Assembly (NCBI GenBank): GCA_051294905.1
Contig: CM119371.1
Coordinates: 15,502,001 to 15,566,000 of the forward strand
Length of the DNA stretch: 64,000 nucleotides
DNA from: Botryllus schlosseri
Taxonomy: Eukaryota
Direction of reading: 5' to 3'
A program made the position numbers and the translations under genes. The notes below the pieces were generated by a model that did not search any database, was not told the origin of the DNA, and saw nothing but the letters and a program-made list of their open reading frames with translations. Positions 8,985-64,000 of the stretch are shown in pieces (the stretch's first letter is position 1; each line of letters starts with the position of its first letter).

Positions 8985-9000
8985 GCCTATTTGTCTTCCT

Positions 9001-9012
9001 AAAAGGGGGAAG
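9001..9012 (+). promoter_or_regulatory. Polypurine tract
   Basis: AAAAGGGGGAAG just upstream of the 3' LTR. Confidence 0.85.
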
Positions 9013-9015
9013 TAT

Positions 9016-9266: not shown

Positions 9267-9301
9267 TTAGTTGCCTAAGCAGTGAACATTAAATTTGCGT
9301 G

Positions 9302-34670: not shown

Positions 34671-36431
34671 AAACCCCTTTCTCCCCAGGCAACAAACCCT
34701 TTTCGTTTGGAAAACTATCATTTACCTGAGTACCAATACCATTTTCGTTTTGAAAACTGACAACTACACCAGTCAATTTGATATTTTTTGTATATTGTTA
34801 CAACAGACAGTGACAAAATATACACCAACAACGACTCCGATACATTTGTGTAATCAAATATTCACTTGCTCTGATGCATCCCATCAAAATCATTGGTTAC
34901 TCACATACAATAACAATGTGCTGTTGTACATCGACATGTATGTTTTCGGAATTGGCGAATAAAGGGGTTTCTGATATGTCCGTGATGTCCGGGTTCGTGC
35001 TTTGGATTTTCCAGAGTCAAAATGTCTGAATAAAACACCTCCTTGACGATGGTTGGTATGTGGATAACGGTGTTCGGAAAACAGTTGGAATTATGTCACC
35101 CATCGCGATAACAACTCCAGGTCGAGTTTTCCTCCCGCATGTTTACTATATTGTGTCTTTATTGGTCAATGTATGTCTCGACATTCAGTTTGAAATCGGA
35201 AACCCTGATAAAGTACGTAACCGGATCCGGATATCAACTGTGAATCGATAAACCAATGAACAATATTCAAAGTAAACATGTTACACCCTGTGTTTCCACG
35301 AAAAAATACCATCCAGACATACGTCGCGCTTGTTTGCCCACGCCAGTATACGCGCAAATGGAGGTGTGTGACATTGCATGCAATGTGTTGGTATACAAAC
35401 ATCGATCCACAGACATTATCATAGCCGGTAATTTTGATGTAGATCGAATGTCACCCGATAACAATGTCATACCAATAAGCCACATTGCAATAACTCTTAG
35501 TCCGCGCTATTACATCGATATTTCGACAACGTTCACTGATTTACTCGATGGTTTTATCGTGTTGTAACATTACAAGATAGTCATGGCCCTATCTCCGGAC
35601 AGATCACCCAGACCAATTGGATACATCGGTCAATATCCGTCGTGTTGTCGACACCGAAGTTTTCTGCTGCAGCGTTTGATCTAGGTGAACTATCGAAGTA
35701 CGGTGCTCGAAATGATTGCGATCAGTCTTTCAGTCACGATCAATGGATGTCGCTACTCCCACATAACGACTCCAGATAAAGATCGTGCAAATGTCGGACT
35801 GATATTGTGATCCAATAAGGTATGTTTCTGTGGAATGAAGACTGCAATCGTACACCACAATAGAACACTACCTCGTGATTTCACACGCAATCATAAAACA
35901 CACTTTCGTAAGGGTCTAGCTCGTCCGGTGACATTTCGAAACGGTCATCGCTACAAGAGATCGGGTTGGTCTCGTCATATCGGTAGCATTTTGACACTGT
36001 CATCACCACAAGGCTATTGAGGTCGATTCTGTTGGTCATATCGAAGAACATGTCAATCCGTTTTAGAATGTACCGTTTTTCAACTCCCCACACTATAGTG
36101 TTACGACACAGACAAGAAGCGTCGGTGGAAATGATAAAACACGGAAGGCATACTTTGGTGTTATTTGATATGGATTTTACACCAGACGAACCTCACATTC
36201 GAGCGATGTATTGGAATGGCGATTGTAGTATTGATGTCCAGGGAAAAGAAATGTATCGATTTATCGGTTTCGTACATATCCAACAAAAACCAGGGTATAT
36301 GATTGTGCATGGTTCGCATATTTGACTGTGATCACAATATTGATATGTACTGTACAGTTCACTTTCACTATCGTGCGAATACCCATGTTACGGTTTCTAT
36401 GTTTGTGTGTCTGTATGTCATGCTTCAGATT

Positions 36432-42400: not shown

Positions 42401-43068
42401 GAATATACACATTAACTAAGGACCAATCACTTGACTATTTACTTGATACATATTCAACATCGGGCGAGAGATGTCTATACCCGAAAGGGCGATTCACGGC
42501 CGCACCCATAAGACGCAATAGCCGCATGCCGCCCCGCCGTAAGACATAACGATATATCATTGTCGTACTCACCGTAAACGTTGGGATTAACTCGAATCGG
42601 TCATATATAATAATTTGTAATATACACATTAACTAAGAGTCAATCACGTGACTATTTACTTGATACATATTCAACACCGTGCGAGAGATGCCTATACCCA
42701 CACAAGTACGACTTGTCAACCCGAGTTTTCGAGGCACCGTGTGAGAGATGCCTATACCTGAAAGTACGACCTGTCAACACGAGTTTTCGAGGCTCCGTGA
42801 GAGAGATGGCTATACCTAGAAGAGTCACCGTGTGAGAGATGCCTATACCTGAAAAGGTAACCATGTCACCACCAGTTTTCACGGCACCGTGTGAGCGATC
42901 CCTATACCGAAAAGGGTTACCGTGTGAGAGAGCCCATAAGACACAATGGCACCGTGCGAGCGGAAGGGGGGGTCAAAAGGGTCACCGTGCCAACACGAGT
43001 TTTCGCGGCACCGTGCCACCGCGCCCATAAGAGCCCCACCCACCTCACGACCGATCATACTAACTACT
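36432..43068 (-). repeat. Right arm of giant inverted repeat (6637 bp)
   Basis: Reverse complement of the left arm minus the hAT insertion. Confidence 0.95.
37259..37572. repeat. ~41-bp minisatellite, mirror copy in the right arm
   Basis: Reverse complement of 34357-34670. Confidence 0.9.
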
Positions 43069-43698
43069 CACGTGATACGAACCCCATGCGAAACAGTTTC
43101 CAACGTTTTTATAATTAAAATACAATCGTAACCAACTAAAACCAACAACTGGATGCTGTATTATCTATTGGATTGCGAGAATAAATAGCGAGAAGCAATT
43201 CGCGTGACACCAGAGCCCATCCTTGATTGTGAATGAGTGCGATGTTTCCAGTAATCCATCGAATATGACACCAGAGCAAGTCACTCTCACGGCGCCTTGA
43301 TTAACAAAGTCAGTAGCAGTCACATTCCTAACATCCTAGACTCTAGCAATTACCTAAACATCGATTTCATAGCTAACATAGCTGTGCCAAAATGAGTTTA
43401 ATACTATTGCAACATATAAAAACTCGAGGCGCGAGGCTATTATCTCCATTTGATATGAGTCCAGTGCGTAGTAAGGGGGAAAGTGTAAAGTATGAAGTTA
43501 TCCTACGAATTCGGTACGATCGCAATTATGGGACAAAGTATCCTGTATTTTTTTTTTCGAATATTCGTAACCCGAAAACTATAACTATGTAATTGTGTTA
43601 TTTAATTGTTTGAGTGTAGAATTAATAATTATTTTCCCGGTTCTGTCCGTAATGACAGATGAACAAAAATGTATTTATATGTCAAATTAAAGATAGTT

Positions 43699-43843
43699 CG
43701 AAATTTCATGCTGGTGACGTCATACTTTGTGATACGATTGTTGATATGCAATGTTCTTTCCAATTCTCTACTAGTTGCTGACGATTACCCCTGACGAGTG
43801 TCAGCCGAAAATATTCGGGTTCATTTCAATATGAATATACTAT
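43699..43843 (+). mobile_element. Short Penelope-like retroposed fragment with a 12-bp TSD
   Basis: Flanked by TTAAAGATAGTT (43687-43698, 43844-43855); homologous to 9302-9443; contains a hammerhead motif. Confidence 0.65.
43787..43820 (+). ncRNA. Minimal type I hammerhead ribozyme motif
   Basis: ACCC-CTGACGA-G(TGTCAGC)C-GAAA-ATAT-TC-GGGT: core boxes CUGANGA and GAAA, UC cleavage site, 4-bp stem I, palindromic AATATT at helix III. Confidence 0.6.
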
Positions 43844-44010
43844 TTAAAGATAGTTACGAAGATCACTTTCAAAAGCAAGTCCCGTGTTGACTGAGCACGG
43901 CCTAACCTGCGTAATCGTCGAGGTATTGAAGTAAGGGCGCATGATCTCACGATCTGATTTAAAAACGTGTCTGTGTTACGACCTTTCCCATGTTGATCTC
44001 CATATGGGTA

Positions 44011-45119
44011 TAGTTTTGAAAACGCAGTCTTAATTCGTTCGCATGGACTGTCAAAAGATGCGAATTGAGCTACGCTGCAGGTTCAGAGAGCTTGATTCGT
44101 ATTGATGCATACCTGGAGGTATCAATTTTCGAAAGAATAAGCGTTGTTTTGCATCATTGGATGCAAATTATAGTATTGATATGAAAATGCGATACTAACC
44201 CTTTGTTTACTAGAAGATCCCGTTTTTAGAGAATATCATGACATGGCACCCTACCCCATATTATAAGGCCTCAAGTTTAGGCCAAGAACAATTCGTAGAA
44301 GTTGTATTGGATATGGTGTCATCACTTTGCGCGATTAGTAAACGTTAATAACAAATATTGTGGATCGTAAAAGTTATATTTAGTGGAGCTTTATTTTGGG
44401 AAAATAGAGGCTTTAATCCACTTGCTTTTATGCTTCAACATGTATGTTCTGCAGACAAAAGAATTGAAAGTAATTAGAACTCAAGGTATAATGCTCGCAA
44501 TTGAAACTGAAATACAAATACCACTTCTAAAGAGCGAAAAATATATTTCATGTCTTTTGTCCATAAAGCTTTAAAGGTGATTTAGTAAAACAGGTGTAAC
44601 GTTTAAAAAAGCTGGATTTTCCAGATTAGCAAGACACGCATAGATTACGATATGACCGGTAACTGCTAGATTGCGAAACGGTAGTTTCAAACGTTATGGT
44701 GGGCCATGTTTATTCAGACGAAATATTTGATATGGGCGACAATGCGTTGTGAGAGGAACCAAGAAATCCGGTGCCCAAATTATATTCACTGATATTTTCA
44801 TGAAAACCTACTTGTCACTCCATCACTAGGCCGAAGCGCAACAAAGTGTCTGGGCTTTACTTGACCTTTATGAATATTAAATGTTGGTATTCCGTGAAAA
44901 CAACCCCTAAATTCCCCAGGCTATCTTTCGTATTGGGGGATTAAACTACTTCTACTTGACAAACTGAAAATAGCGAAAAGTAAGTAAGTAGATCACAAAA
45001 TATCACGAAGTAGAAGTAGAAGTAGAAAAATCAGATCTACTTGAGTAAGTGTCAGAAGTAGAGGAAAACTACTTGAGTACTTCGAAAAAGTAGAAGTATT
45101 TCGTTACTGACCACCTCTG
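44011..45119 (-). mobile_element. Diverged, one-end-truncated copy of the hAT element at 28997-30270
   Basis: Inverted colinear homology to about 28997-30105; intact end TGACCACCTCTG at 45119; flanks CATATGGG/TATATGGG resemble a TSD. Confidence 0.85.
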
Positions 45120-48100
45120 TATATGGGTTTAATTTTAGCAAGTCGTGAATAACGGAATTGGCAAAAATACGATGGTTTCCGATTGAATACGGCAAAGAGC
45201 CGATCAAACGTTGGCGCTAACGACGATATAACTTGACACTTGCTTTGGTCGTAATCTGGCGTTATCCCTGTGTATGCGCTGTGAGTGATCTAATGAGATG
45301 TTCAATTGTAAACCTGGACGTTGGAATTTAGTTTATTATCAATAAATTACGAGTAGAGTTTCTTTCAAGTCCGGGGACCTGTTGGGTCAGAAGTGACACA
45401 GCAGTGCGACCATAGATATTTCAATGATTTATTTGCGTAACAGGGGCCTACGATACGAAACGATACCGAATATCGTAGGCCCCGGTGTAACTAAGATATT
45501 TTCTAGGGATGGTGTGAACGTAATTTCGGACCTCCATTCAAGCCCCCTCCCCCTATTGGGGGTTTTGAGTGCGACTCTGTTGGTCCTGCATATATACCTT
45601 ATCAATATAAGATTTGCTGGTGGAGCTGATAAAGGCGGTGTCTTCAAACATTTAGAAGGCACGCAATGATTCCTATTGAGCTATATGTTCATACCACACG
45701 ATAAGACTATTCACGAGTGTCGGGAACGTGAGCGTATCGGCGGGCCACTTGTACTTATTTGGTTGAAGCATGCCGTTATTTAGTGACCTCCGGTCGGCTC
45801 CGGAGAAAGTTGTCGCCACTTAAAGGATCGCTCACACGTACCGCAACCTAGTAAAAGAGAAATGTCCATGGTGGGATTCGCACGATTCTAAATTTGCATT
45901 TATTCACGGGCGCAATATTTATTGCCTCAGCTCGTCGCATTGGTACGCTTGGGACTCAGGTTGCAAAGACTGGGCCGTATGCGCGATCTTCGACCAATAA
46001 GGTTCTATCGCCGGCGATCTTTCTGGGATCGCACTTCGTGTTAGCTAAACCTATCTGCATTAGGTGTCTTTTTGGCGCCGAAAATCTGGTGCCTAATAGT
46101 TCCGCAAACGCAGGCAGCACACAGTCACATTCAATTCTGTACATCAGGCGTATGTTTATTTAGGCCTATTATTTATTTTGATTTATCGAGAGACGAGTAG
46201 TAAACAATCAAATAACTATACAAATTATATATCGCGCAAAGCAAATATTAATTTACGAAAAAGTCCGAAAAATTGTGGAGAGCCCATGGCCCTTTTGGCC
46301 CCTCCTGGCTTCGGCAATGCCACCTATACAAGGAATAAATCGTAAATGAATTTATTAACGTTATGTAGCCTATACTTTGATAGTTGTTGAAGTCGATGAG
46401 ACATCTGTGGTCGATCAAAGTTTTCAACTATAGTTCTTTGAGCTTTGCCTGCGTGTAGGACGTGGTAAATCCTGCACGTGAACATAAATTAGATTGTACC
46501 GCAGATTTATCTTGTTAATGTTCATGGCCGGAAATGTATGCTCGCAAATGTATGTAGAGTAGTAGACCCGCGTGCCACAGTATCATGTAAAACCGGAAAT
46601 CGTCTGCGAGCCGCTCAAAATCCCGTTGCGGACCGATATCTGGCTGATTGAGCGATTCCGGGGACATGAGCGGAATATAATTTACACTTACGTAATCAGT
46701 ACAGCACAATGTGTTTGAACTGCAGCCCTAGCTTTAAAGATTATCGAATCCACCATTATTAAACTGCAGCACGGTAATATTTTATTCGTGTTGTGTGCTT
46801 ATTCGGCTATTTCGTAGTCAAGTGTGTCTAACTCAACGTTATACCACATCCACAGGTAGAGCGGATGTAAGACATCCTGCATACCGGAAGTGTGAATTGT
46901 TATTGCCGCTCGAGAAACTGTGTCGGTCTTTGTTACGTCACAAGCGCAACACAATTCGGATATTTCGAAGTTGAATAGTTGATTACTAACGTTTGGTCCT
47001 GATGAAAGTCATTCGAAATGCATTGAGTGGAATAAAATAGGGTGTATGAATATGTTGTTTGCTGTGATATGAAAATTATGCACATTTTAAAGTGAATTTA
47101 AATCACAAAAATGCACCAAACTTCAACAAATTCCAGTAGGTGTCGCTCTAGGAGCCTTCGTATATAAATAGGCTTGAAAAAGCGCGGCGTCGCAGAAATT
47201 TTAACTCACGAACGCGAGTCACGTCTGCTTCTCGAATTCAGCGATTATAGCTCGAACTTCAGATTTCAAAAAGTGAATACTTTGGATATGGATTTTCAAA
47301 AGTGAGTAGCTCTATTTCTAGTTGCACATTTGAAAAAGAATTTGGGTTTTCGACCAACTAGAAAGCACTTGTCATTTGATATTTGCTGTGATGTTCTTGA
47401 TAGCATCATGGCGGAGCGTCGGTCGGCGGGCTCCATCCCCGCCCGGGTTAGACTAAAGGCTTGATTATTAACAGTTGTATCGATGACTGCCCCGCTTGTC
47501 GCTCAGCATTACCGGCATAGCTTGGAAGGGCGATGCGAGATTTAGAAAGCCTAATACAAAGCTAAATATCCATCTTCCTTGTCCAGCGGCACATGCACAT
47601 CATGCACTGCTCCTGGAAGGAATATGAGTATAGGGAAATGTCACAAATTAGATTTGAAGTAGATAACCAGCATTATGTTCTACTTCATGTGATAGAATTA
47701 TAAGCGGAAGTCTGTTTTCAGATCCAGCGAGTATAGCATCTAGAATTGGCACTTGTTCGCACAGCGATTTGTGATGCGTGACTTTTGTTTCAGTCTCTTT
47801 AATTGACTTTATGGTTGTATAAATAAAATAAAAATACATTAAAGATTACCGTACTTTGTGTCTTTTTTTCGTTAAACTTGTGAAAATTCGTTGGATCGAT
47901 AACAACAGATATCTCATTTCTACCAAGTTTTGTATTTTTGTAATACAAGGCATCTACGGCAAAAATAGTATTGAAACTGTGATTCTCTTGAACATGCCTC
48001 TTCAATTGCACTTGATGAAAATACTGAGTCAGTCGAGACTTCAAAGATATCTCTGTTGTTAGTGAGTTTCATATGCTTCATTACGACCAATCTAGCTTGA

Positions 48101-48335
48101 CAATGCTTGTGTACAAATAACTCATTCTGGCAATGAGCATATAGTTTGAGTACCGTACTTGAAATAATCATATCGTAATACTTGACTCGAATAATTAGAG
48201 TCATTACTCGATTCAGGTTGGATTGCTTGTATCATTGTAACCATCATCCAGCACTGTCCATTAGTAATTTTGAGTACCAGTGAGGCGTCTTTACATTTTC
48301 ATTAGTTCGATTTTAACCGGCCTATTTACAAACAG

Positions 48336-51300
48336 GGTCCAGGAACCCAAGGAAAGCGAGGGGGAAGGTATGTATGACTTGACGTTGCTCTATCTTCTCT
48401 GATCTTGGGCGGATGGATAGAACATGCGCGTCTTTTTCAGGTGACGAGATTTCATCCACCTGCAGTGGGGTGTCAAGTGACCACTCGTATTCTATGGGTA
48501 ACCGACTACCAGGAAGTGTGGTCCAACCAAAAAAGAAATTTCCCAGGTGAAAGAGTTTTTGAAAAATTTTTGCTTGAGTTCGTATTGGTTATATTTGACG
48601 CCTAAATAAAATCTACCCCAACAATGGCATATTCTACTTGTGCAAAGTTTGGAACAAACCGGGATGGAATTCTTGATCCTTGCATATTCACATTTCACAC
48701 ACATAGTTTGAATGTGATTTCCTATAGTAGCAATTCATGCCTGGCACGAGAAAAATCTCATTGAGGAGTATTAGAATACATGTGTTGTACATGGTAAAGA
48801 GTAAACATAATTTGTCTACATGATAAGATATAGACGCAAAGCAGAGAGACAAATGTATCATGTCATCATGAAACCTGTAGCTATCGTATACCAAGCCTCA
48901 TATAAACATTTCTAGTCAGCATCATATGTTAACAATGTAATCCATAGCTTTCAATTTAGGAATAAAACTGCCATTTTGTAAAATATATTCAAACCCAGTG
49001 GTTACCAACCTTTTTTAACTCGTACACCCATTGACCGAGATTGGAGCCTAAATTTCCCCTCGTTGAAATCATCTCTCTCTACTCGGCTTCAATCTTTAGC
49101 ATTATTTCTCGATTCTGATTCGATTACTCGAATGATTGTATTCATCATCCAGCGCCATCCAACGTTGCGTTTGAGTACTAGTGAGGAGTTTATTTTCCTT
49201 AACGTTTCTGGTTGGTTTGATTTTAATCTGTAATCAACAAACAGCAAAAAGAGAACACGCAGTCCCTTTGCCGTGGCGGTAAGAAAACAACAGGATTTGG
49301 CAGGACCGAGTACCAGAAGATCAGCAAGGTGGGCAGTTGTTATTCGTGAATTTTATAAATACATAACTGATTGCACATAGAACATTTTAATTTGTGAAAT
49401 CTGATATGATAATGACTCGAGATCATGTTCTTCTTTGAACGTAAAATGGCAAGATCTTTGTGTTGTAAATTGATCGCGCTGCTATGCTTTTGGTAATCAA
49501 GAACAAATTATACCTTGGTTTCTCTTTCTGCTGTTATCTTTGCTTATCAAAGTGGTGCTAGGCCTATATCATGGCTTTCAATACAACATCCATCATAAAA
49601 GAATATTCATTGAACTCGTAGAATTTTCGGGTGCCTCTTTTCAAGAGTTAGCTGCACACTTCTTACAATGGATGTTGTATTGATAGCTATATTCAAGTTC
49701 TGTACCACGAACCAGCTAATTAGGAATTGCCTATATCTTAACAATACAACTGGTTTCTTAGGGTGTGCTATGGCTATGGGCTGAAATATAAAAAGATTGA
49801 AACGTCGGGTATAACATATTCTGACGGGATGCATTACCATGTGTGAAACTGGTCCTGTTGTATGGTATCAAGTTGAGGTTGCTACTTATTTGAATGCGAA
49901 ATCATAAGGTCTCCTGCTACGACATTGGCGGGGTTATGTATGGTGTTGTTATTATGTGCGAGATTGTGTGATTCTTGCAGTAGAGGCATTTGTACATATA
50001 TTTAGCCTTACAAATCTGATATAATTTATAACATCCTGTTCGCGAAACGCCCCCTTTTATTTCTCTGTATGAAACATGCTTGCGAAATATGATTTGATAT
50101 ATATGTGTTACAGTAACTGAATTCATTTTCGAATATCGCTACAAGTCATTTTTTGTTAGTAGCAGGTGTGAGGAGACCGTGCGGTCTAAGGAAGAGAAAA
50201 CGAAGTGTCTGCAGACCTTATTGGACTCTCATTCGTCGGCAGCAAAACCCACTGCTCAGCAGCTTTCAAAAAGTAAGTCCAACTGTAGGAGTATTAATTA
50301 CCAACCTAAGGATAGATATGCAGCTCCTGTCGTCAAGCTAACATACACAATGAGGTCGACTGCTGGGCCGGGCAAAATTGGTGTTATTGGCAGTCCTATA
50401 GCGGGCAACCCGAGCGCTAAAATTCAATCAAACTTGACTTCATCGCAAGCTAGTGTCGTACTTTAAAAATATATAATAAAATCAGGCCAGTTTATTGGAA
50501 CCAACCTCAAAATAGCCCTCAAAATCTGAACATCAGGATCGTTGCAAAGACTGGTGCCGGTAGTTTGTTCAAGTTTGGTGATAATGCTGTGGGTTAATCA
50601 TGACTTCAGAGAGGTGTCGTTTCCGCTACTTGCATGGAGTTGTACGACGTTTATCGTAAGCTGTGTTATGACCGATCGAGGTTTCAAGGATATCACTCGA
50701 TTAGGATAACTATAATTCTCGTTGATAAATTCACTCTTAAGCATCAGTCACGTACGTAAAATCGTATGGCGTATAGGGCGCGTAAAGCATTTCTTTAGTT
50801 TCTCTCCTTTCTCTTCTCTTCTCTCATTTGCTCGGCGTAAAGAGCCTCCTCTCTCTCGTTTTTTACGCGGACCTTACACAGACCTTACATGGAGAGAGCG
50901 ATTCGTACGAGCGTATTGTGGACTTGCCGAGCTAAATTGTGAGAATTGATAGCTGCAATAAGGGGTCGCAAGAGGCTCGGCTGACGCTTGGCAGCGACAA
51001 CATGCGTTACCTTTATTCTCACTTTTCGTTCAGCGATGACGTAATCTCTCGTTTTGGCCAATTTAGTGAGAGAGTGAGAATCGTACGAGGTACGATTTTA
51101 CGAGAATGTGACCCAGTCTTTAGTGACAAGGATCATATAATTTCAGTACTCGACTCGAATCATCAGAACTAATACTCTATTCAGATTCCAGCAATCGCAT
51201 TCCAGGATTGCCACCAAGGGGCTCTTCCAGGCAAGGTACTAGACACGGGAAAAGGCCCGTCTCGCCATCACCTGGTAGAAGTGGGCCTGCGCCAAAGCGT

Positions 51301-54300
51301 CCCTCGGCACCTGAATATGGATATGAAGGTCAGTATGAGATTACGCTGGTCTGCAGCCAAATTGCTTCTGAGATCAGAATTGGAAAACTAGAAAATCTTC
51401 AACTTAACGAAATGGATTAGAATTACAATTAGAATTAGAGATATGCGGTTTTGCCAAATTTCATTTAGAATTAAAAATACACATTTTTTCCAAATTAGAT
51501 TAGTATTAGAATAAGAGCTACACAGTTTTACCAAATCAGATTAGAATTAGAATTGCACAATTTTTTACGAAGTAGATAAGAATTAGTTTATTCGCATATT
51601 TTGATTGAAATTCCGAATGAGAAAGACTTAGCAGCAAAATTCAAGTTCAGCCCATAGCAAATCAAGCATGAGAACGATCAACTTCTGTACACCAAGCTTG
51701 GCTGATTTAATGAAACTCTCTCTCTTTTTCCCACCATACAGTTCTCTCGCATCCTTGTCTGAAAACTCTTTCCGATGGAGGTGATGTTGCACGCGCACTT
51801 GCGAGTTCTTGAGCTGAGTTCCAGTAACTCAAAACATCACATTTTGTGTTCTCAAGCTCTGCTGAGAAATATCTTTCCACTTCATTCCCTAATATATTTT
51901 CTTTAGATAGATCTGAAGCAATCTTCCTCTTTTTTCTTGATGTAGTTGAGAGCATGTGTGAAAAGACCTGTGTTAACTAAGGCTTTTTCTTCAGTAGTGC
52001 CGTTCTGTTGGTGATTATAACTAGAAATTGTTCACAGGCTACAAGCTCCTATGCCTGCATGGGTATTTTATTCGTCTCAATAACTACTATGACTGTATGA
52101 TGTATGACGTCCTGCAAAATGTCCCAGACATATAGCATTGGAAATATTTGACACCAAAATTCAGTTGCGAATTCAACAACAGATCACAGATCACGGGAGC
52201 CAACTACAAGACCTGCTGGGAAGGCCAGGTCAAAGTCGACGCCCAAGGCCAAGTTGACGTCAAAGTCGACTTCCAAGGCCAAGTTGACGTCAAAGTCGAC
52301 GTCCAAGGCCAAGTTGACGTCAAAGTCGACGTCCAAGGCCAAGTTGACGTCAAAGTCGATGTCCAAGGCCAAGTTGACGTCCAAGTCGATGCCGAAGACC
52401 AAGTTAACGTCAAAGTCGACACTAAAGACCAAGCTGACGTCGAAGTCGACACCCAAGGCCAAGTTGACGTCAAAGTCGATGCCGAAGACCAAGTTGACGT
52501 CACAGTCGACGCCAAAGTCGACACCAAAGACCAAGTTGACGTCGAAGTCGACGCCAAAGGCCATGTCGACGCCAAAGTCGACGCCAAAGACCAAGTCGTC
52601 CAGGTGAGCTTGTGCTCTGTAAATAAGTTTTGCCCTGGGTTCTAATGACTCTAGTTGCAATTTTTCTTTGAGTTGACTTGAGTCAATTTGTGTATTAACC
52701 CGACCAAGTCATATGACATTCAATATGGCAGGAGTGGACGATTATTATCCCCGCGGGCCAAATGATCGCAGAAAATACGTTGGTGGGCCTATATCCTGTT
52801 TTTTTTGTATTTCTAAATGGAAAGCAGTGAGTTACATACATGGTGGCCTGTGGATCTGTTGGTATTTGACAACGAGGAAGTGTTGGTTAATTATCGCAGT
52901 CATAATTCAAAACAATGGTCCACACCACATGATACATTTTGAACGCTTTTTCAACCCGCTGATACGATTTTTTATTAGGATAATGAAAAATGTATTGAAG
53001 ATACTACAAAGCTTGTCTTGGTTGCTGCCTCTGGAGCAGTCTACAGCCTGGTGAAATAGACTTTTTTGTTGATGGAAAGTAGCAGTGCTTCCGAAACGCG
53101 CCCTCCCTTAGCCGAGTGTCTGTCTTTGTCTTTTTGCCATAACACCGACTTAAATTATACTCCACGGCGACCTGCTCGCGACATACTAATAAGACGGGTT
53201 CTCCCTCGACTCCAATAAACGAAGATTTAGTGCGCCTAATATTCTTGGAATTTCAGCCACCCGTCCGCTCATCGTTTCATCACCTGTTCAATTACACTTG
53301 GTGAAAATGCTGAGTCATTTACGACTTCTCAGATATCTCTGTTCCACAAACGTTAGTTTTGTATGCTTCAATACGACCAATCTAACTTGAGAAGGCCCGA
53401 GTCGAACTAACTCTTGCTGGGAATGAGCATATAGTTTAAGTACTTGCAATATTCATCAAGTCGTACTTGACTCGAATCATTAACATAATTTTTCGATTCA
53501 GACTCGAGTGTTCGTATCATTGGCATCATCATCCAACACTGTCCATTGGTAGTTTCGAGTACCAGTGAGGCGTCTTTACATTTTTATTAGTTCGATTTTA
53601 ACCTGCCTATTTACAAACAGGGTCCAGGAACCCAAGGAAAACGAGAGGGAAGGTGCGTATGACTTGACGTTGCTCTCTCTTCTCTGATCTTGGGCCGATG
53701 GTTAGCACATGTTTTTTTTTTCAGGTGACGAGATTTCCTCCACCTGCAGTGATGTGTCGAGTCACGACACGTATTCTATGGGTAAGCTACTACCAGGAGG
53801 CGCGCGTCAACTAAAAAAGAAATTTCCTCCCAGGTGAAAGAGTTTTTGAAAAATTTCTGCTTGAGTTCGTTCGTATCGGCAATATTCAACGCCTAAATAA
53901 AATCTACCCCAAGAAGGGCATATTCTACTTGTGCAAAGTTCGAAACAGAGCGGGATGATATTGTACGACCTTGCTTATTCACATTGCACACACATTGTGT
54001 AAATGTGATTTCGTATTGTAGCAATTCATGCCTGGCACCAGAAAAATCTCATTAAGAAATATTAGAATAAAATTGGTGTACTTGGTAAAGAGTAAGCATA
54101 ATGTCTAAGTTATAAGATATAGACACAATGCAGAGAGACTAATATATCATGTCATCATGAAACCTGTAGCTATCGTACCAAGCCCCATATAAACATTTCC
54201 AGTTAGGAGCATGTGTTAACAATGTAATTCACTGCTTTCAATTTAGAAATAAAACTCCCATTTCGTAAAATATACTCTTACCCAGTGGTTACCAGCCTTT

Positions 54301-57300
54301 TTTTTATCTTGTGGACCCATTGGCCGAGAATGGAGCCTAAATTTCCCCTCTCTACTCGGCTTCAATCTTTAGAATTATTACTCGATTCTGATTCGAGTAC
54401 CCGAATGATTGTATTCATTATCCAGCGTCATCCAATGGTGGTTTTGAGTACTAGTTAGGAGTATATTTTCCCTAACGTTTCTGGTTGGTTCGATTTTAAC
54501 CTGCAATCAACAAACAGCAAAAAGAAAGCATGCAGTCCCTTTGCCGCGGCAGGAAGAGAACAGCAGGATTTGGCAGGACCGAGTACCAGAACACCCGCAA
54601 GGTGGGCAGTCGTTATTCCAACAACCAATCTAATTCGTCGTCAATTTTATAAATGCATAACAGAACATAGAACATTTTAATTTGCGAAATCTGATTTGAT
54701 AATGACCCAAGATCAAGTTCTTATTTTAACGTAAAATTGTATAGGCGTATAGTGTTGTTATTATGTCGAGATTATCTGATTCTTCCAGTGGGGGCATTTG
54801 TACATATATTTTGCCCAATAAATCCAATATAATTTATAACATGTTTTCGTAACGGCCCTTTTTTTTCTCCGTTGGCTACGCGCGTTGTTGTGGTGTGTTT
54901 GCTTGCCTCACCTCAAAATATGAAACATGCTGGCGAAATATGCTGTGTTATATATGTGTTACAGTAACTGAATTTATTATTGAAGATCGCCACTAGTCAT
55001 TTTTTGTTAGTAGCAGGTGTGAGGAGACCGTACGACCTGAGGGTGAGAAAACGAAACGTCTGCACCCCTTATTGGACTCTCTTCCCTCGGCAGCAGAACC
55101 CACGGCTCAACAGCTTTCAAAAAGTGAGTCCAACTATGGGACCATAGGTTACAAACCCGAGGATAGATATGCAGCTCCTGTCCTCATGCTCACGTGCTCA
55201 GGGATCAGTTTTCGGGCCCCTGCTGTTCATAACCCAAATCTTGCCTGTGCATTGAAACCAACCGCAAATTAGGTTTCAAGGATTTCACTGTACTATGAAA
55301 ACTATGACCTCGTTGATAAATTCACTCTTAGTGACAAGTAGCGTATGATTTCAGTACTTGACTTGAATCATCATAATTAATGCCCTATTCAGATTCCAGC
55401 AGCCGCATTCCAGGATCGCCACCAAGGGGCTCTTCCAGTCAAGATATTGAAAGCCGGAAAAGGCCCGTCTCGCCATCATCTGGTGGGAGCGGGGCTGCGC
55501 CAAAGCCACCCTCGGCACCTGAAAATGGATATGAAGGTCAGTATTAGATTACGCCAGTCAACAGCCAAATTGCTTCTAAGACCAGACTTGCAAGCTATAA
55601 AATCTTTTGTTATACGGGATGGATTACGATTAATATTAGAATTAGAGATATACAGTTTTTTTTCGAATTAGAATTAGCGCTACACAGTATTTCCGAATTA
55701 GATTATACTTAAAAATACACAATTTCTTTTCAAATTAGATTAGTATTAGAAGAATAGCTACACAGGTTTACCAAATTACATTAGATTTAGAATGGCACAA
55801 TTATTTCCAAATTAGATTTGTACTAGAATTAGAGCTACATATTTTTTTCCAAATTACTTCAGAATTAGAATTACAGCTACACAATTTTTCAAATTAGATT
55901 AGTATTAGAATTTGCAGAGCTACATGTTTTTTTTTCAAATCAGATTAGAATTAGTTAATGCGCAAATCTTAAATGAAATTCCGAATGAGAAAAAATTAAC
56001 AGCAAAATTCAAGTTCAGCTCAACAAATCAAGCATTAGAATGATTAATGTCTGTACACCAAACTTGGCTCGTTTAATGAAACTCTCTCTCTCTCTCTCTT
56101 TCGCGCTATACAGTTCTCGTGCATCCTTTGCTGAAATCTCTTTTTGATGGAGACGGAGAGCAGTAGCGAAATTCCATGATCTCAAGCTCTGTTGTGAAAT
56201 ATCTTTTCACTTCATTCCCTACTATATTTTCTTTGGACATATTTGAAGCAATCTTCCTCTTTTTTCTTGATGTGGTGGAGAACATGTGTTAACTATGTCT
56301 TTTTCTATGGTGCTGTTCTGACTACAGGTTGTTCGCAGGCTACAAGGCACTATGCCAGCATGGCTATTTTATTCGTCACAATAACTACTATGACTGTACG
56401 GTATAAGTAACGCGATGGCGGTTTGGAATTGAATTTCTCAGAGCGAGAGGAATATTCTTGTTGACGCTCTTCAAAATTTCGCGGACATATAGTATTGGAA
56501 ATATTTGACACTAAACTTCAGTTGCAAAATCAATGACAGATCACAGATCACAGGAGCCAACTACAAGACCTGCTGGGAAGGCCAAGTCCGAGTCGACTCC
56601 CAAGTCAAAGTTGATGCCTAAGTTGAAGTCGACGCTCAAGTCAAAGTCGACTCCCAAGATTATGTCGTTCAGGTAAGGTTGTGCCCGGTGAATAAGTTTG
56701 GCCTTGGGTTATAATGACGCGTGTTGCAATTTTTTTTTACTCGACTCGAGTCATTTTGTTATACATGGAAAATCACGTAACTCGACTTGATTCACTTTGT
56801 GTATTTACCCGACCAAGTCATATGAGCCGAGACATTCAATATGTCAGGGGTGGGTAATCATTTTCCCCGCGGGCCAAACGAAAGCAGAAAATACGTTGGT
56901 GGGGCGAATCAAAATTTTTTAACTATATCCTACGTTGTTTTAATTGTATTTCTAAATTGGAAGGAGTGAATTACATTGTTAATACATGGTACTCAGTGGA
57001 TGTATTGGTATTTGACGATGAGAAAGTGTCGGTTAATTATCAAAAATAATATTTATTGGCCGTCATAATTCAAAACAATGGCGAACATGATACATTTTAA
57101 AATCTTTGTTAACCCGCTGAGACTATTTTTTATTAGGATAGTAAAAATATGGTTAGGATACTACAAAGCCTGTCTTGGTCGCTGCCTCTCGAGCAGTGTG
57201 CAGCCTGGTTAAATAGACTTTATCGTTGATGGAAACTAGCAGTGCCTCCGAAACGCACTCTTCCTCCGAAACGCGCCCTCCCTTAGCCGAGCGTCTGTCT

Positions 57301-60300
57301 TTGTGTTTTTGCCATAACACCGACTTAAGTTATACTTCACGGCGACCTGCTTGCGACAAACTATTAGGACGGGTTCTCCCCCGACTCCAGTAAACGAAGA
57401 TTTAGTGCTCCGAATATTCTTGGATTTTTGGTCGCCCGCTCATCGTTTCACCTCCTATTCAATTGTACTTGGTGAAAATGCTGAGTCATTCACAACTTCA
57501 CAGATACCTCTGTTCCACCAACGTTAGTTTCGTATGTTTCAATACGACCAATGTAGCTTGAGAAGGCTCGTGACAAAATAACTCTTGCTGGGAATGAGCA
57601 TATAGTTTAAGTACTTGAAATAAGCATCAAGTCATACTTGACACGAATCGTTAGAATAATTTCTCGATTCATGTTCGATGACTCATATTGTTGGCATCAT
57701 CATCCAGCACTGTCTATTGGTAGTTTCCAGTACCCATGAGGTGTCATTACATTCTCATTAGTTTGATTTCAACCTGCCTATTCACAAACAGGGTCCAGGA
57801 ACTCAAGGAATGCGAGGGGGAAGGTGTGTATGACTTGACGTTGGTCTCCCTTTTCTGATCTTGGGCGGATGGTTAGCACATGAGTGTTTTTTCAGGTGAC
57901 TGGATTTCCTCCAGCGAGAGTGAGGTGTCGAACAACGACTCGTATTCTATGGCTAACCTACTACCAGGTTTTGTTGAACCAAGAGAGAAATTTCTTCCCA
58001 GGTGAAGGAGTTTTGGAAAAATTTCAGCTTGAGTTCGTTCGTATCGGCGTTATTCAACGCCTAAATAAGATCCACCCCAACTATGGCATATATCTACTTG
58101 CGCAAAGTTTGAAACGGAAATTGTCCATCCTTGCATATTCACATTGCACACAAATATTTCAAATGTGATTTCCTATTGTAGCAATGCATGCCCGGCACGA
58201 GAAAACTCTCATTAAGAAATATGGAATCAAATTGTTGTACTTGATAAAGGGTTGTAAAGACTCAAGTCATGTCATGACTTGAGTCCCGTTTAAGTCACGA
58301 TTTCTGATGACTCGACTTGACTCGAGTCATTTTCTCAAAATACGCAAATGATTCACCTCGAGTCAATTTGTGTATTGACTCAACTTGGACTCGAGTCATT
58401 GCGCATGACTCGTACAAAGTCATATGACTCGAGACTCTAACGGCCAAGACCGACGTTTCATTATAATTTCGAAGAAAAGTAAAGTAATCACTGGGGCGGT
58501 TTTTTTTGACATGTCAAAATTTGTCAAAATTTTGTCAAAATTGTAGCGTTAGGTCAAAATTTGTCAAAATTGTTCATAAAGTCAAAATTTTTTTGACGTC
58601 TTTATTTCGTTTGTATCATAGATTTTGCAGTGTCTGTGAACGTATCATTTGATATTTTACAGCTTGTAGTCTACTTTATAGCCCTACTGTTGTACACGGC
58701 GCATTGTCTGCTCATACTGAATCATCAACGGTCAATGGTCAACGTACCGCAATATCCTAACTGGGGCATCATTCTTATATTGAGAAGCGCATGATGAAAA
58801 ATTGTAATAGACAACATTGTCAGAATGAAGCAACATGTTGCGTCACCAGTAGTGTATGCACATTGCACAACTTGAGTGTTGTCAGCCAACTGCTGCTGTT
58901 GAACGTCCTTGGCAAGTAAGGACATGCACTTTTTACACAAGAATATAGGAAAGTATCTCTCGTTGTACTACAATTTTTTTAAATTATTTCCGCCATAATA
59001 CGTATTGCAACCACTGGAATTCTTCATAAAGCCAGATTTCGGTAAAATATTGTTTTTTATATATACAAAGTCGCCTGTTTCTGAGCCAAAAACGTTTTTT
59101 CAGGCCAAACTACTTCGTTGGGACAGCCAGTTACAACCGGAAATGTAGATAACTGGTACAATTTTGACATTATTTGGGAAAACACCTAATTTGCATACGT
59201 TAGGTCAAAATTTGGTCAAAATTCAGTTTTTTTAGGTCAAAAAAAGTCAAAATTTTGATTTTTTAGGTCAAAATTTTCTTTTTTTTAGGTAAAAAAAACC
59301 CGCCCTAGTAATCACGCTAATTGGATTTCGGCTATTGGTACTTTTACTTGTAAATGCGAGCAAAAACTGCTAAAAGTGAGGAAATTTAGTATATTATGAA
59401 TGCAAACTATTCGATATCACCAAACAGAGTTATTAACAGTGTCTGTGGCAAGACTAACAGGAAACTGAGCAGTCAACACAATGTCTTGGACTCGGACTCA
59501 CTTGGACTCGAATTCACTCGGTGGTGAATTGAAAATGACTCGACTTGACTCAAGTCAAAACTATAAAAATGAGGTTTACTTGTGACTCAGAATCTTGTGA
59601 CTTGGTAACAACCCTGGTAAAGAGTAAGCATAATTCATTAAATTTATAAGATATAGAAACCATGCAGAGAGTCAAATGTACCAAGCTCCATATAAACATT
59701 GCCAATCAGGAGCATATGTTGACAATGTAATCCACTGCTTTTAATTCAGAAATAAAACTCCTAATCGGCAGAATATACTCTAACCCAGTGGTTCCCGACC
59801 TTTTTCATCTCGTGGTCGCCATTGACCTAAGTTTGAGCCCAAATTCCCCCTCATAGAAATAATCTCTCCCTACTCGACTTGAATCCTTAGAATTATTATT
59901 GAATTCTGATTCGATTACTCAAATGATTGTCTTCATCATCCAACATTGTCCATCGGTATTTTCGAGTACTAGTGAGAAATTTATATTCCTTTACGCAGTC
60001 CCTTTGCCGCGACGGTAAGAGAACAGGATTTGGCAGGCCCGAGTGCCAGAAGATCAGCAAGGTGGGCAGTCGTTATTACAACAACCAAGCTAATTCATCG
60101 TAGACTTTATCCATACATAACAGATTCCGCATTGATCATTTTAACTTGTGAAATCTGATATGATACGGACTCGAGATCATGTTCTTGTTTGAATGTAAAA
60201 TGGCAACATCTTTGTTTTGTAATTTGATCGCACTGCTTCTCTTTTGGTAATCGAGGACAAATGATGTCTTTGTTTCTCTTTCTGCTTTTATTTTCGCTTA

Positions 60301-62768
60301 CCATAATTGTGCTATATCTTAATGATACAACTGGGTTCCGTGGGTGTGCTACGGGCCAAAATAAAAAAGAATAAAACATCGGGTTCTGTTGTATGATATC
60401 AAGTTAAGGTCACTACTTATTTGAATGCGAAATCATAACGTCTCCTGCTACGACATTTGCGGAGTTGATATGTGCGAGATTATCTGATTCCTGCAGTAGA
60501 GGCGTTTGTGCATATATTTAGCCCGATAAATCCGATATAATGTAGAACATCCTGTTATCGAAACACCTCCTATTTTATCCGTTTGCTACGCGCCTGGTGG
60601 TGGTATGTTGTTTGTATAACCTCAAAGTACGAAACATGCTTGTGAAATATGCTACGAAATATATGTGTTCAGTAACTAAATTTGTTTTGGAAAATTTCTA
60701 ATAGTCATTTTCTGTTGGTAGCAGGTGTGAGGAGACCGTACCATCTGAGGAAGAGACAGCGAAATTCACGAAGAAGTTATTGGACTATCTTCTCCCAACA
60801 GCAAAACCCACGGCCCAACAGGTTTCGAAAAGTGAGTCTAACTGTAGGAGTATAGGTTACCAACCTAACGATAGATAAGCGGCTCCTGTCGTCACGCTCA
60901 CATGCACAATGCAGGTAACTGCTGAGCTAGGCAAAATCAGCATTATTAGTACAGAAATTTTCCATGTATTATGCACAAAATTTTACTGATCTTTTGTCCT
61001 AAAATCGGGGGTGCACGGGTGCACCGAGCATTAAAAAAACTTCCCTCGAAATAACACTCGAAATCACGCCTTTCCTCATGTTTGTTTTAATCGCGCATCA
61101 CATTAAGCCATCTTGCCCAGTAATTTGTATTATCAGTGTTGCGCTCTGCCAATTAGTGAGAAGCGTCTGCACTGCGCAACAGCATGCGATCTCCTGTTAA
61201 GTTGGTTTGCCGTTTGTACGAGAGCGAAATTTGGTTATTGATTACTGCATACCTGCTCGACAATCCTTGCTACTTTATCGCATCACCGACAGGCCTGAAC
61301 ATTCGCATATACAGCATGCCAAGTGCGCAAGATGTCGTCGCTGGCCTGAACACTACAGACGCGTCTTCAACATTCCTTGTGCGCACGACATAACCTGTGG
61401 CCTGAGCAATCGCATCTGTAATAGACCTCTTGCGCAAGATGTCTTGTTGCTGGCCTGAACTATCGCAGGCCTCCCATGCTTTATCTGCTATCTACTATCG
61501 TTTAGAGACAATGCCGTGAATTGTATAATGATCAGAGATCGTTACGCCATGATTGTTCCACAGTGACACCAAACAGAATGATTTCGAATACCAAACACAA
61601 CTATTCATGTACTGCGAAAGCAGTGTATGTACTATACATGGGTGCAGGCTTTTTTCCAGAATGTGCTTGTCATTTTAAGTATGCGTATTATACATGGTGG
61701 TGTACCATACTTGAAAAGTTACGGTAGTCCTATAGCTGGCAACGCGAGCACTAAAATTCAATCTAACTTAACTTAATCGAAAGCTAGTGTTGTGCTTATT
61801 TCAAAAATACATATTAAAAACTGGCCAATGCATTGAAACCAACCTTAAAATAGCCCTCAAAGTCTGAACATGAGGATCGTTCCAAAGAATTGTAGCGATA
61901 GTTTGTTCAAGTTTGGTGATAATTCAGTGGGTTGATCATGACTTCAGAGAGGTGTCGTTTCCACTACTTGCATGGAATTGTACGTCGTTTATCGTAGCTG
62001 TGTTACGAACTACCGGGGTTTCAAGGATTCCACTTTATTATGAAAACTATAATTCACGTTGATAAATTCACCCTTAGTGACATGGATCGTATAATTTCAT
62101 TACTCGACTCGAATCATACTCCATTCAGATTCCAGTGACCGCATTCCAGGATTGCCGCAAAGTGGTTGTTCAAGGCCAGGTACTACATGCGGGAAAAGGC
62201 CCGTCTCTCCATCATTTGGTGGGAGCGGGGATGAGCCAATGCCTCCCTGGGTACTTGAATATGGATGTGACGGTCAGTATATGATTACGCTGGTCAGCAG
62301 CCAAATTGCTTCTGAGACCAGACTTGGAAAACTAGAAAATCCTCAGTTTCACTAAATGGATTTGAATTACAATTAGAAATAAAGATACACACTTTTTTGA
62401 TCGAATCGGAATGGAATTAGAGCTACACATTTCTTCCAAATCAGATTAGGATTAGAATTACTGCTACACAATTTTTCCAAATTAGATTAGAATTAGTTAA
62501 TTCGCAAATATGAATGAAATTGCGAATGAGAAAGAATTAGCAGCAAAAATCAAGTTCAGCCCATCGCAAATCAAACATGAAATTGATTAACGTCGTGACA
62601 CCAAGCTTGGCTGGTTTAATGAAACTCTCTCTCTATTTCCCACTATACAGTTGTCTTGCTACCTTGGCTGAAAACTCTTTTCTATGGAGATGAGGAAAGC
62701 AGTCTCTTTGCCGCGGCGATGAGAGAACAGGAGGATTTGGCAGGTCCGAGTGCCAGAACATCAGCAAG
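48336..62768 (+). CDS. Partial multi-exon gene for an unknown low-complexity S/K/P/R-rich protein built from a tandemly repeated 6-exon cassette; start and end not identified
   Basis: AG/GT-bounded exons joining in phase with no stops: 48336-48367, 48441-48546, 49245-49328, 50166-50272, 51185-51328, 52183-52603, 53621-53652, 53725-53833, 54518-54601, 55017-55123, 55393-55536, 56540-56672, 57792-57823, 57896-58001, 59999-60061, 60725-60831, 62129-62272, 62651-62768 (2073 nt). Length differences between paralogous exons are multiples of 3, except the chimeric last exon, which changes its start phase compatibly. Confidence 0.75.
50740..51119. mobile_element. PIF/Harbinger-type MITE in an intron
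   Basis: Absent from the paralogous sites (CACTCTTAGTGACAAG near 55323; also near 62070); 3-bp TTA TSD; degenerate TIRs sharing GTCAC..CGTAAAATCGTA. Confidence 0.7.
51707..51955 (-). pseudogene. hAT transposase C-terminal dimerisation-domain remnant (intronic, antisense)
   Basis: EVERYF..DVLSYW..ATSPPSERVF matches the hATC motif; adjacent (G)AATTA(G) repeat field at about 51416-51590; paralogous remnants near 56100-56290. Confidence 0.7.
52225..52600 (+). repeat. 30-bp coding tandem repeat, (KSTSKAKLTS)n in the spliced frame
   Basis: Unit GTCAAAGTCGACGTCCAAGGCCAAGTTGAC, about 12 degenerate copies inside exon 52183-52603. Confidence 0.9.
53120..53260 (-). pseudogene. hAT-Charlie (GTF2IRD2/EPM2AIP1-like) transposase N-terminal remnant
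   Basis: Minus-strand pieces FIGVEGEPV / LVCREQVAVEYNLSRCY resemble F....GKPVCLIC.E.VAV.KEYNL.RHY; paralogue near 57300-57440; Charlie-type end CAGGGGTGGG..CCCGCGGGCC near 56845. Confidence 0.5.
58248..59616. mobile_element. hAT MITE (GACTCGAGTC family), intronic, private to unit 3
   Basis: AGGGTTGTAA...TAACAACCCTG ends; homologous to 23615-24170; empty site GGTAAAGAGTAAGC near 54084. Confidence 0.8.
58492..59307. mobile_element. hAT non-autonomous element (GTCAAAATT-repeat family) nested in the previous MITE
   Basis: TIR TGGGGCGGTTTTTTT / AAAAAAACCCGCCCTA; perfect 8-bp TSD GTAATCAC. Confidence 0.88.
60952..61724. mobile_element. Tc1/mariner-type (pogo/Tc2-like) non-autonomous element
   Basis: TA-flanked; degenerate TIRs CAGAAATTTTCCATGTAT vs (reverse complement) CCGTAACTTTTCAAGTAT; absent from the paralogous site near 50388. 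Confidence 0.6.
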
Positions 62769-63378
62769 GTAGGCAGTTGGTATTCCAACAAACGAACTAA
62801 TTCATCTTAGATTTTATCAGTACATAACAGATTCCTCATTGAACATTTTATTTGTGAAATCTGATTTGATGCGGAATTGGAATCATGTTCTTGTTTGACC
62901 GAAAAATGGCAAGATCTTTGTGTTGTAACTTGATCGGGCTGCTTCTCTTTTGGTAATCAAGGACAAATTATGTCTTCGTTTCTGTTTTTGCTGTTATCTT
63001 CGCTTACCTAAGTTGTGCTTTATCTTAATGATACAACTGGGTTCCGTGGGTGTGCTACGGGCCGGAATAAAAAAGATTGAAAAATCGGGTTCTGTTGTAT
63101 GAAATCAAGTCAAGGCCCCTTCTTATTTGAATGCGAAATCATAACGTCTCCGGCTACAACATTGGCGGAGTTGATATGTGCGAGATTATCTGGTTCCTGC
63201 AGTAGAGGCGTTTGTGCATATATTTAGCCCGATAAATCCGATATAATTTAAAAAATCCTGTATCAAAACACCCCCTATTTTTCTCCCTTTACTACGCGCC
63301 TGGTGGTGGTATGTTGTTCTGTATAACCTCAAAGTACAAAACATGCTTGTGAAATATGCTGCGAAATATGTGTTACAG

Positions 63379-64000
63379 CAGGGGTGGGTAAACTACGGCC
63401 CGCGGGCCGCATGCGGCCCTCCACACCGTTCTGTGCGGCCCGCGAGAGTCTAAAGAAACTTATTAAAAATATTGATCAAATGCGTATTAAAAATCGCATC
63501 ATTGCAGGGACTTGATTTAACTTTTGCTTGGTATATTTCACCATGATAATTCTAAGGCAGTGGATCTCAAACTGGCGGCGGCGCACCTCCTTGGGGGCGT
63601 GAAAGCATCTGAAGGGAGGCGCATAGCTGAGATCAACTAAAAAATAAACATCTCATTCAGATTTATTGCTCTGTATTTAGTCTAAATTTCATATTCACAA
63701 ATTTCTCATCCACAGTCGTAACCTTCCATGCCATCAAACTACCAGTTAGGAATTAGGATTGCTAGCATCCTGGTTTCATTTTGTGATATGACGCTATTAG
63801 GGGAGCGCGGAATCTTTTACCATCATAAGAGGAGGTCTTGAAAAGTTTGAGAACCACATGTTCCATTGTAAATGCTTCCTATATTATTTTTTATGTTTAA
63901 TTTCTGGCGTTACAGCCCGATCTCAAGTCCCACGCAGTTTAAAAGGTTGCAGCTTCTACACATCACAGAAGTCCTAATCGAGATTGACATAATTCGGATT
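63379..64000. mobile_element. hAT-Charlie-like MITE running off the window, with a nested second MITE (about 63559-63860)
   Basis: Starts CAGGGGTGGGTAAACTACGGCCCGCGGGCCGCATGCGGCCC; nested element CAGTGGATCTCAAACT...AGTTTGAGAACCAC. Confidence 0.65.

Follow-up and report, generated by a model that had tools for sequence, protein, structure and literature searches.

A probable spliceosomal gene in Botryllus schlosseri that lengthened by in-frame tandem duplication of a six-exon block

The window analysed here is a 64,000-nt stretch of the Botryllus schlosseri genome (assembly GCA_051294905.1, contig CM119371.1; coordinates below are positions in the window). On its forward strand lies a series of mostly short open exons, which a first-pass annotation had joined into a hidden multi-exon gene. 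Rebuilt from the splice flanks, the model consists of 18 AG/GT-bounded exons between 48336 and 62768 (forward strand), which together amount to 2073 nt. The joined sequence has no stop codon in one frame, compared with 30 and 18 stops in the other two forward frames and 10, 15, and 35 in the three frames of its reverse strand. All 17 junctions are phase-compatible, and the stop-free, phase-compatible join described in the first pass was thus reproduced from the coordinates. The exons fall into six types, whose phases are 2-1 for A, 1-2 for B, 2-2 for C, 2-1 for D, 1-1 for E, and 1-2 for F. It follows that the A–F block as a whole is phase-symmetric (2-2), while four of its six exons are individually asymmetric and only C and E are symmetric. 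The exons are laid out as 6 + 6 + 5 + 1; the earlier count of three copies per type holds for A, B, D, and E, but F is present twice and C four times. The features of the locus are as follows.

47161..47167, forward strand: TATA-like box, candidate promoter with a putative function (pattern match, one of three in 45200–48335)
47242..47301, forward strand: candidate first coding exon, ATG at 47288, peptide MDFQ, phase-2 donor after 47301
47409..47660, forward strand: broken Cys-rich ORF remnant in intron 1, pieces in two frames with stops
48336..48367, forward strand: exon A1, 32 nt, phase 2-1 (splice flanks, splice scores)
48441..48546, forward strand: exon B1, 106 nt, phase 1-2, Ser-rich with a Lys cluster at its end
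49245..49328, forward strand: exon C1, 84 nt, phase 2-2, basic start, DLAGPS
50166..50272, forward strand: exon D1, 107 nt, phase 2-1, contains LxxLL
51185..51328, forward strand: exon E1, 144 nt, phase 1-1, Pro/Arg-rich; acceptor and first ~16 nt match a MITE end
51742..51780, forward strand: possible optional exon G1, 39 nt, phase 1-1, acceptor in the 94th percentile, picked in one of three chain-search settings
52183..52603, forward strand: exon F1, 421 nt, phase 1-2, Lys/Ser/Thr repeat with a 30-nt period
53072..53219, forward strand: weak candidate terminal exon or ORF (H) in the F1–A2 intron, 48 codons, stop overlapping AATAAA
53621..53652, forward strand: exon A2 (splice flanks)
53725..53833, forward strand: exon B2, 109 nt (splice flanks)
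54518..54601, forward strand: exon C2 (splice flanks)
55017..55123, forward strand: exon D2 (splice flanks)
55393..55536, forward strand: exon E2 (splice flanks)
56540..56672, forward strand: exon F2, 133 nt, short repeat (splice flanks)
57792..57823, forward strand: exon A3 (splice flanks)
57896..58001, forward strand: exon B3 (splice flanks)
58242..59614, no strand assigned: private high-copy insertion of ~1.37 kb in the B3–C3 intron, depth in X1 contigs 1592–17065 in three overlapping bins
59999..60061, forward strand: exon C3, 63 nt, acceptor in the 96th percentile
60725..60831, forward strand: exon D3 (splice flanks)
62129..62272, forward strand: exon E3 (splice flanks)
62651..62768, forward strand: chimeric exon G/C4 (exon 18), 118 nt, phase 1-2 (alignment of copies)
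62769..64000, forward strand: intron running off the window; homology to the C–D intron stops near 63378

Donor scores were high throughout the model. All 18 donors lie in the 96th–100th percentile of 931 local GT sites, and the acceptors have a median percentile of 91.5 among 875 AG sites, with C1, C2, F1, and F2 mediocre (37th–56th percentile); the scoring matrices are generic approximations. GC content is 52.5% in exons compared with 38.0% in introns, a step of 14 points. A homology-free chain search, which takes only splice scores and open frames as input, scored 43.1 on the gene strand, compared with 7.3 on the opposite strand and 4.7–19.1 on the 10 control strands, which were taken from this window as well. 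Of the 18 exons in the model, the search found 17 donors, 9 acceptors, and 9 complete exons with exact bounds; given the modest recovery of acceptors, the placement of the 5′ boundaries of C, D, E, and F leans on homology between copies. The locus shows the canonical, above-background splice sites around an open frame that mark spliceosomal protein-coding genes. Splice strength, chain search, and phases together support the first-pass view of a real multi-exon gene that grew by in-frame tandem duplication.

The upstream search for a start that the first pass had proposed turned up the in-phase ATG exon at 47242–47301. Its donor is the highest scoring of the 24 upstream donors listed in 43100–48300, and one of two among them with an in-frame ATG; it ends in phase 2 and joins A1 in frame. 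The ATG has G at both −3 and +4, and the chain search chose this exon unprompted in two of three settings. Its 5′ edge is uncertain: the exon could open at an AG (47242 or 47196) or with transcription starting near 47190. Judged from these sequence features, the candidate start exon and the TATA-like box may form the 5′ end of the gene. With this exon included, the 19-exon model comprises 2087 nt and 695 codons with no stop. At the other end, reading is open: neither a stop codon nor a 3′ end of the gene was found up to the window end at 64000, nor was a D4 exon within the same limit.

Several further segments were considered as exons. The Cys-rich remnant in intron 1, which gave no protein match in the search, shares 35 nt (47574–47608) with a very abundant transcript from elsewhere whose flanks differ, and it probably lies outside the coding sequence. 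The donor of G1 exists only in unit 1 of the aligned copies. H has a counterpart at 57229–57393; both copies are open and differ by an 18-nt in-frame insertion, and their acceptors are weak (24th–37th percentile). An extra exon at ~48000–48060 with its copies, and a His-His stretch ending at a donor at 48279, were dropped because the copies do not preserve their splice sites or phase.

Self-alignment places the beginnings of the three duplicated units near 47997, 53283, and 57454, with ~72–85% identity in aligned blocks. The duplicated block spans ~4–5 kb and six exons, has phase 2 at both ends, and is arranged head to tail; the units diverge by 15–23%. Except in the F repeat, the larger indels are intronic (unit 1 has one of 383 nt and unit 3 one of 1373 nt, for instance), which confirms the private intron insertions reported earlier. 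Within the F repeat, all spacings are multiples of 6 and length changes come in multiples of 6 nt. The region from 62699 onward is 88.6% identical to the C3 region over 677 nt, compared with ~79% for C1 and C2, at a spacing of 2706 bp. This likeness and spacing point to a younger 2.7-kb sub-duplication of C-D-E, which joined the E–F intron to the inside of exon C, and exon 18 accordingly consists of 48 nt of former E–F intron fused to a truncated C. The younger duplication is not phase-symmetric and needs the G acceptor. This phase-1 acceptor at 62651 has a counterpart in all three units and ranks in the 94th percentile; an exon that opens here would take in 48 nt of former intron before C4. 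In C3, the old acceptor was lost by deletion, and a formerly exonic AG of the same phase remains. We infer that these replacement acceptors at C3 and 62651 were recruited, which would keep the frame if both are used.

Part of the splicing signal may itself be of transposon origin. A TIR-bounded element at 20369–20882, with 11-bp terminal inverted repeats, is similar (83% over 60 nt) to a stretch that runs from the D–E intron across the E acceptor into the first ~16 nt of E1, which suggests that the E acceptor is probably MITE-derived. The end of this element also occurs ~100–130 nt upstream of the A and C acceptors, and since these upstream regions can be aligned with each other, A and C may go back to a common, older duplication. 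Misassembly is an unlikely explanation for the array: contigs from another sample (X1), treated as DNA since they read through introns, cover parts of units 1–3 and C4 with 1–18 other letters and no gaps (six of eight pieces listed, of 6154); B3 and C3, as well as portions of C2 and C4, lie in such ungapped stretches.

The three diverged copies of exons and introns serve as an internal control that separates selection on the frame from selection on residues. Divergence among copies is 0.139–0.199 in exons versus 0.143–0.164 in aligned introns, the latter being a lower bound, since only well-aligned blocks were counted. The comparison of paralogous exons advised by the first pass gave dN/dS ratios of about one (0.73–1.84 across pairs and kappa settings, 150–157 codons of A–E), with no interval below 1. 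Variable sites are spread over codon positions 1, 2, and 3 as 37, 45, and 38 of 150. The invariant fraction of 80 of 150 (0.53) compares with a neutral expectation of 0.52, and the longest invariant run of 7 has P = 0.55 in neutral simulation. Purifying selection on amino acids was not detected in these copies, with dN/dS near 1 and no block above neutral conservation, and no motif is conserved in them beyond neutral expectation, so that no selected motif could be demonstrated.

The reading frame gives a different picture. All exon indels are multiples of three, compared with 4 of 47 pairwise intron indels. Within A–E, no stop was seen where 4.4–5.1 are expected neutrally (P0 0.006–0.012), no frameshift where 4.5 are expected (P0 0.011), and no AG/GT change apart from the deleted C3 acceptor where 6.0 are expected (P0 0.0025), these P values being optimistic since the exons were found by being in frame. 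As a control, intron stretches open in unit 1 were followed into units 2 and 3, where an open, in-frame state was retained by 44 of 84 overlapping windows of 84 nt, 12 of 34 of 107 nt, and 0 of 5 of 144 nt; of the intronic dinucleotides, 47 of 92 AG and 45 of 75 GT were shared by all three units. These comparisons point to selection against stops, frameshifts, and loss of splice sites, and the frame appears to be selected while the residues do not. The earlier claim of a frame under selection therefore stands for the frame itself, but does not extend to the amino acids.

The 690-residue translation of the 18 exons contains 16.5% Ser, 11.7% Lys, and 10.3% Pro, with a pI of 9.99, a FoldIndex of −0.15, and 18 S/T-P sites. 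By the charge-hydropathy method, 88% of 51-residue windows have a FoldIndex below 0, above the 70% threshold set for a disordered protein, and no hydrophobic segment was found in the translation (maximum KD19 1.06). Net charge is +0.08 per residue over the whole model, with acidic A/B segments. By its composition, disorder, and lack of a hydrophobic stretch, the product looks intracellular and unfolded, and the disordered, basic character assigned to it in the first pass is borne out by FoldIndex and pI. All nine S/T-P-K sites are in F1 and F2. Each of the three D exons carries LxxLL, whereas D-H-x-Y is confined to B1; both motifs have P ~0.006 in shuffles of the first 165 residues and were sought post hoc. 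PxxPxR has P = 0.14 in shuffles. The motif types that we take to point weakly to the nucleus are LxxLL, D-H-x-Y, S/T-P-K, and the basic clusters found in E and where B meets C. Such nuclear motif patterns are common in proteins of similar composition. Overall, the sequence weakly suggests a nuclear location; of the nuclear claim made earlier, the basic clusters and SP-type sites were found, but none of the motifs showed conservation above neutral expectation.

Homology searches support the earlier statement that no known domain is recognizable. Of 11 peptides compared with Pfam, the nine from the locus gave sub-threshold matches only, and exon E has no credible homologue in the protein sets and the viral and metagenome contigs searched. 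The large-set protein searches used exon E alone as query. Exon E had no homologue among 64 candidates of 84–2000 residues from a 5.8-billion protein set, in what was a weak search, and no match in viral contigs. A match among 1.84 billion representatives (E 2.3e-4) was rejected as a repetitive unrelated protein. Four metagenome loci were also set aside, since they gave short matches in DNA of 59–68% GC, three of the four in frames of fewer than 50 codons. For F1, the best ESM Atlas score (0.81) was uninformative. Rfam gave no match in the window, no NACHT domain was found among window ORFs of at least 120 aa, no signal peptide was seen at the locus, and general-term searching of the literature yielded no description of the gene. 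Elsewhere in the window, a BTB-kelch ORF at 2.0–3.6 kb has the best of its seven matches in Styela clava, at 29% identity.

Expression was assessed by comparing 4 of 24 listed sequencing runs with positions 45200–64000 at 90% likeness. Three were RNA runs, X9, X13, and X6 (12.9, 10.0, and 12.8 million records, corresponding to 6, 13, and 12 in 100 of each run; tissue labels absent), and the fourth was the X1 contig set; 16 other RNA runs (13 single-cell) were not included. X6 is labelled as another organism, and the method may drop animal reads. Nearly all placed reads fit only in part (4958 of 4965 in X9, 2587 of 2594 in X13, and 136 of 136 in X6), as expected of repeat fragments from other transcripts. 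RNA depth in the three runs was zero in the five bins that hold A1, B1, F1, A2, B2, D2, and D3 (7 of 18 exons). Among the 15 joints listed of 132, no predicted junction occurred and none had GT..AG ends; the spliced-read support that the first pass had asked for is thus absent from the listed joints of these three bulk runs. As a rough estimate, expression in the X9, X13, and X6 samples is near or below 1 TPM. This result counts against broad expression, not against the gene, which is well supported at the DNA level and unconfirmed at the RNA level.

Taken together, the locus very probably is, or recently was, a protein-coding gene. The contrary view, a non-coding segmental triplication in which an AG/GT-bounded open chain was picked post hoc, would fit the equal divergence of exons and aligned introns (0.14–0.20 vs 0.14–0.16) and the lack of RNA support and of a homologue, but it is hard to reconcile with a chain score of 43 where the 11 control strands reach 19 at most, with donors that are all in the top 4%, with the 14-point GC step, and with three separate tests of frame preservation, and we regard it as very improbable. 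For the nature of the gene, we tentatively favor, at somewhat under even confidence, a lineage-specific spliceosomal ascidian gene whose product is a disordered basic protein that stands alone, is probably nuclear, is expressed in a restricted manner, and owes its function to bulk properties. The DNA shows that a six-exon block of ~4–5 kb was copied head to tail to give units 1–3, followed by the younger 2.7-kb sub-duplication of C-D-E. In this scenario, transcription would begin near the TATA-like box at 47161 and translation at 47288, yielding a product of at least 695 residues with a pI of ~10. Its job would be set by length, charge, Ser/Thr-Pro sites, and a few short motifs, and not by a fold, and a function of this kind would explain a guarded frame with freely drifting residues. 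We predict a nuclear, chromatin-associated linker or scaffold whose Lys/Ser/Thr repeat binds nucleic acid electrostatically and whose basic clusters, in E and where B meets C, direct nuclear import; expression is probably limited to an unsampled stage or cell type, such as the germ line. The fullest version of this history, in which a young animal gene under selection for frame and bulk chemistry only acquired a splice site from a MITE, tripled a block, and was twice rescued by new in-phase acceptors, once turning intron into coding sequence, is a doubtful proposition.

Other readings of a genuine gene carry less weight. The exons could encode an N-terminal disordered spacer, with a domain such as a NACHT/NLR ATPase or a kinase beyond 64 kb, whose translation would be the reason for keeping the frame. 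A pure spacer predicts a dN/dS near 1 with a strictly kept frame, and the gene is indeed open at the window end; no domain was found in any scanned exon, however, a spacer of 695 residues or more would be long, and the phases vary between exons instead of all being 1-1. We see this reading as unlikely but worth keeping in view. It is less probable, and in our judgment distinctly unlikely, that the gene was selected while its copies diverged and is now silent or newly dead, for example through the 2.7-kb sub-duplication or a lesion past the window. The zero RNA depth over 7 of 18 exons, the dN/dS near 1, and the need for recruited intron sequence to keep the frame after E3 would all agree with such a fate; they have to be set against 2087 nt with no stop or frameshift despite a tree length of ~0.3 substitutions per site, strong in-phase acceptors at both rearrangement junctions (96th and 94th percentile), and the X1 contigs, which are ungapped across B3 and C3 and across portions of C2 and C4. 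A row of partial copies or short isoforms, with transcripts that end at H in the F–A introns or skip blocks and no single long ORF, appears still more improbable. H is open in both of these introns, fits phase 2 after F, and tolerates an in-frame 18-nt insertion; its end, on AATAAA or AGTAAA, lies ~65 nt short of where the unit stops. In addition, the symmetric exons C and E, or the entire block, could be skipped in frame. Nevertheless, the acceptors of H are weak (24th–37th percentile), no start exon that fits phase 2 precedes A2 or A3 in all copies, no other donors in the locus score as high as those of F, and the acceptors of A are intact.

The favored gene, a stand-alone disordered protein lengthened by block duplication, can be compared with several known systems. 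Growth of disordered proteins by internal tandem duplication of phase-symmetric exons has been described, as in calpastatin, MAP2, and SCPP/SIBLING genes (Schad et al, 2013; PMC3632108). The locus shares with those proteins predicted disorder, in-frame internal duplication, modules that match exons, and short motifs such as PxxPxR, and differs in that the unit is a six-exon block of mostly asymmetric exons and that no module is conserved above neutral expectation. The growth mechanism is therefore already known, and the locus follows it with a duplicated unit that spans several exons. The C-terminal tail of linker histone H1 and the protamine-like sperm nuclear basic proteins are fast-evolving basic comparators. 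With the H1 tail, F has in common a Lys/Ser/Thr/Pro/Ala repeat with S/T-P-K sites, rapid evolution, and possibly restricted expression. The locus differs from these H1- and protamine-like proteins by its many introns, its acidic A/B segments, and a net charge of only +0.08 per residue; furthermore, no winged-helix H1 globular domain was found by Pfam in the seven locus peptides scanned (including B1, C1, D1, E1, and F1), and the product is for this reason not classed as H1-type. Exonization of transposons is an established mechanism, with Alu exons as the standard case. Here, similarly, the 3′ splice site and first codons of E match an element end; unlike in standard exonization, only the acceptor and about five codons appear to come from the element, and further copies of the exon then arose as the block was duplicated.

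With the mechanism known, the case is neat more than surprising. It adds an example of an orphan disordered protein that lengthens, with a splice site of probable transposon origin and apparent frame rescue at the junctions, and this gene would be missed by ORF-based and homology-based annotation. If the gene is expressed and required in the germ line, it would offer a natural test of disordered-protein function that is nearly independent of sequence; and exon 18, if read as proposed, would capture the recruitment of intron into exon at a duplication junction.

In all three units of the predicted 18-exon gene, the diverged copies of its A–F exon block, exon D is preceded by a tandem in-frame acceptor of the TAG-TAG/CAG type, which allows one-codon variants. 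Strong donors are also present inside C1 (49278) and C3 (60014), the type C exons of units 1 and 3; by count, the C1 donor is out of phase with D, and its use would shift the frame. Upstream of the candidate promoter lie two strong acceptors, each with a moderate donor 6–11 nt downstream, and these pairs are possible micro-exons or a product of chance.

Splice-site features and intron 1 remnant of the 18-exon locus
50163–50166, tandem acceptor of D1
55014–55017, tandem acceptor of D2
60722–60725, tandem acceptor of D3
46459–46464, acceptor with close donor
46856–46866, acceptor with close donor
47409–47660, broken Cys-rich ORF remnant inside intron 1

The Cys-rich remnant has two AATAAA signals downstream, at 47822 and 47838. 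Its bases 47574–47608 match a very abundant transcript, the flanks of which differ from the locus; reads sharing one loose end at this match number 2688 in X9 and 1176 in X13, two bulk RNA runs aligned to 45200–64000. When translated in the plus frame, the flanks of the transcript add a C-x2-C-x4-H-x4-C-like spacing. Variation was seen in exon B3, where one contig of X1, another sample whose contigs behave as DNA, differs at 57953 and 57962. Both changes read as non-synonymous, and neither creates a stop in this one contig.

Features elsewhere in the window
1995–3646, BTB-BACK-kelch gene, two overlapping ORFs in different frames
4469–9266, LTR retrotransposon (LTRs 4469–4723 and 9012–9266)
20369–20882, intact-looking MITE of ~514 bp with 11-bp terminal inverted repeats
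27573–28996 and 30271–35502, left palindrome arm
43074–41651 and 41658–36432, right palindrome arm, opposed to the left

Exons A, C, and E have decayed ends of the MITE family at their acceptors or close by. A near-perfect palindrome of ~15.5 kb (27573–43074) has arms that are 99.7–99.8% identical, separated by a 929-bp spacer, and contains no ORF of at least 120 aa. Its left arm carries a private insertion of ~1.27 kb (28997–30270), a further copy of which (87%) is located at 44011–45119. The palindrome may represent a giant foldback element or an inverted duplication of recent date, though an assembly artefact is conceivable.

The LTR retrotransposon, whose 255-bp LTRs share 97.6% identity, matches protease, reverse transcriptase, and RNase H, with stops and frame changes breaking up its coding region. 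The BTB-BACK-kelch gene contains an apparent frameshift near 3200–3330, and its best match is only 29% identical.
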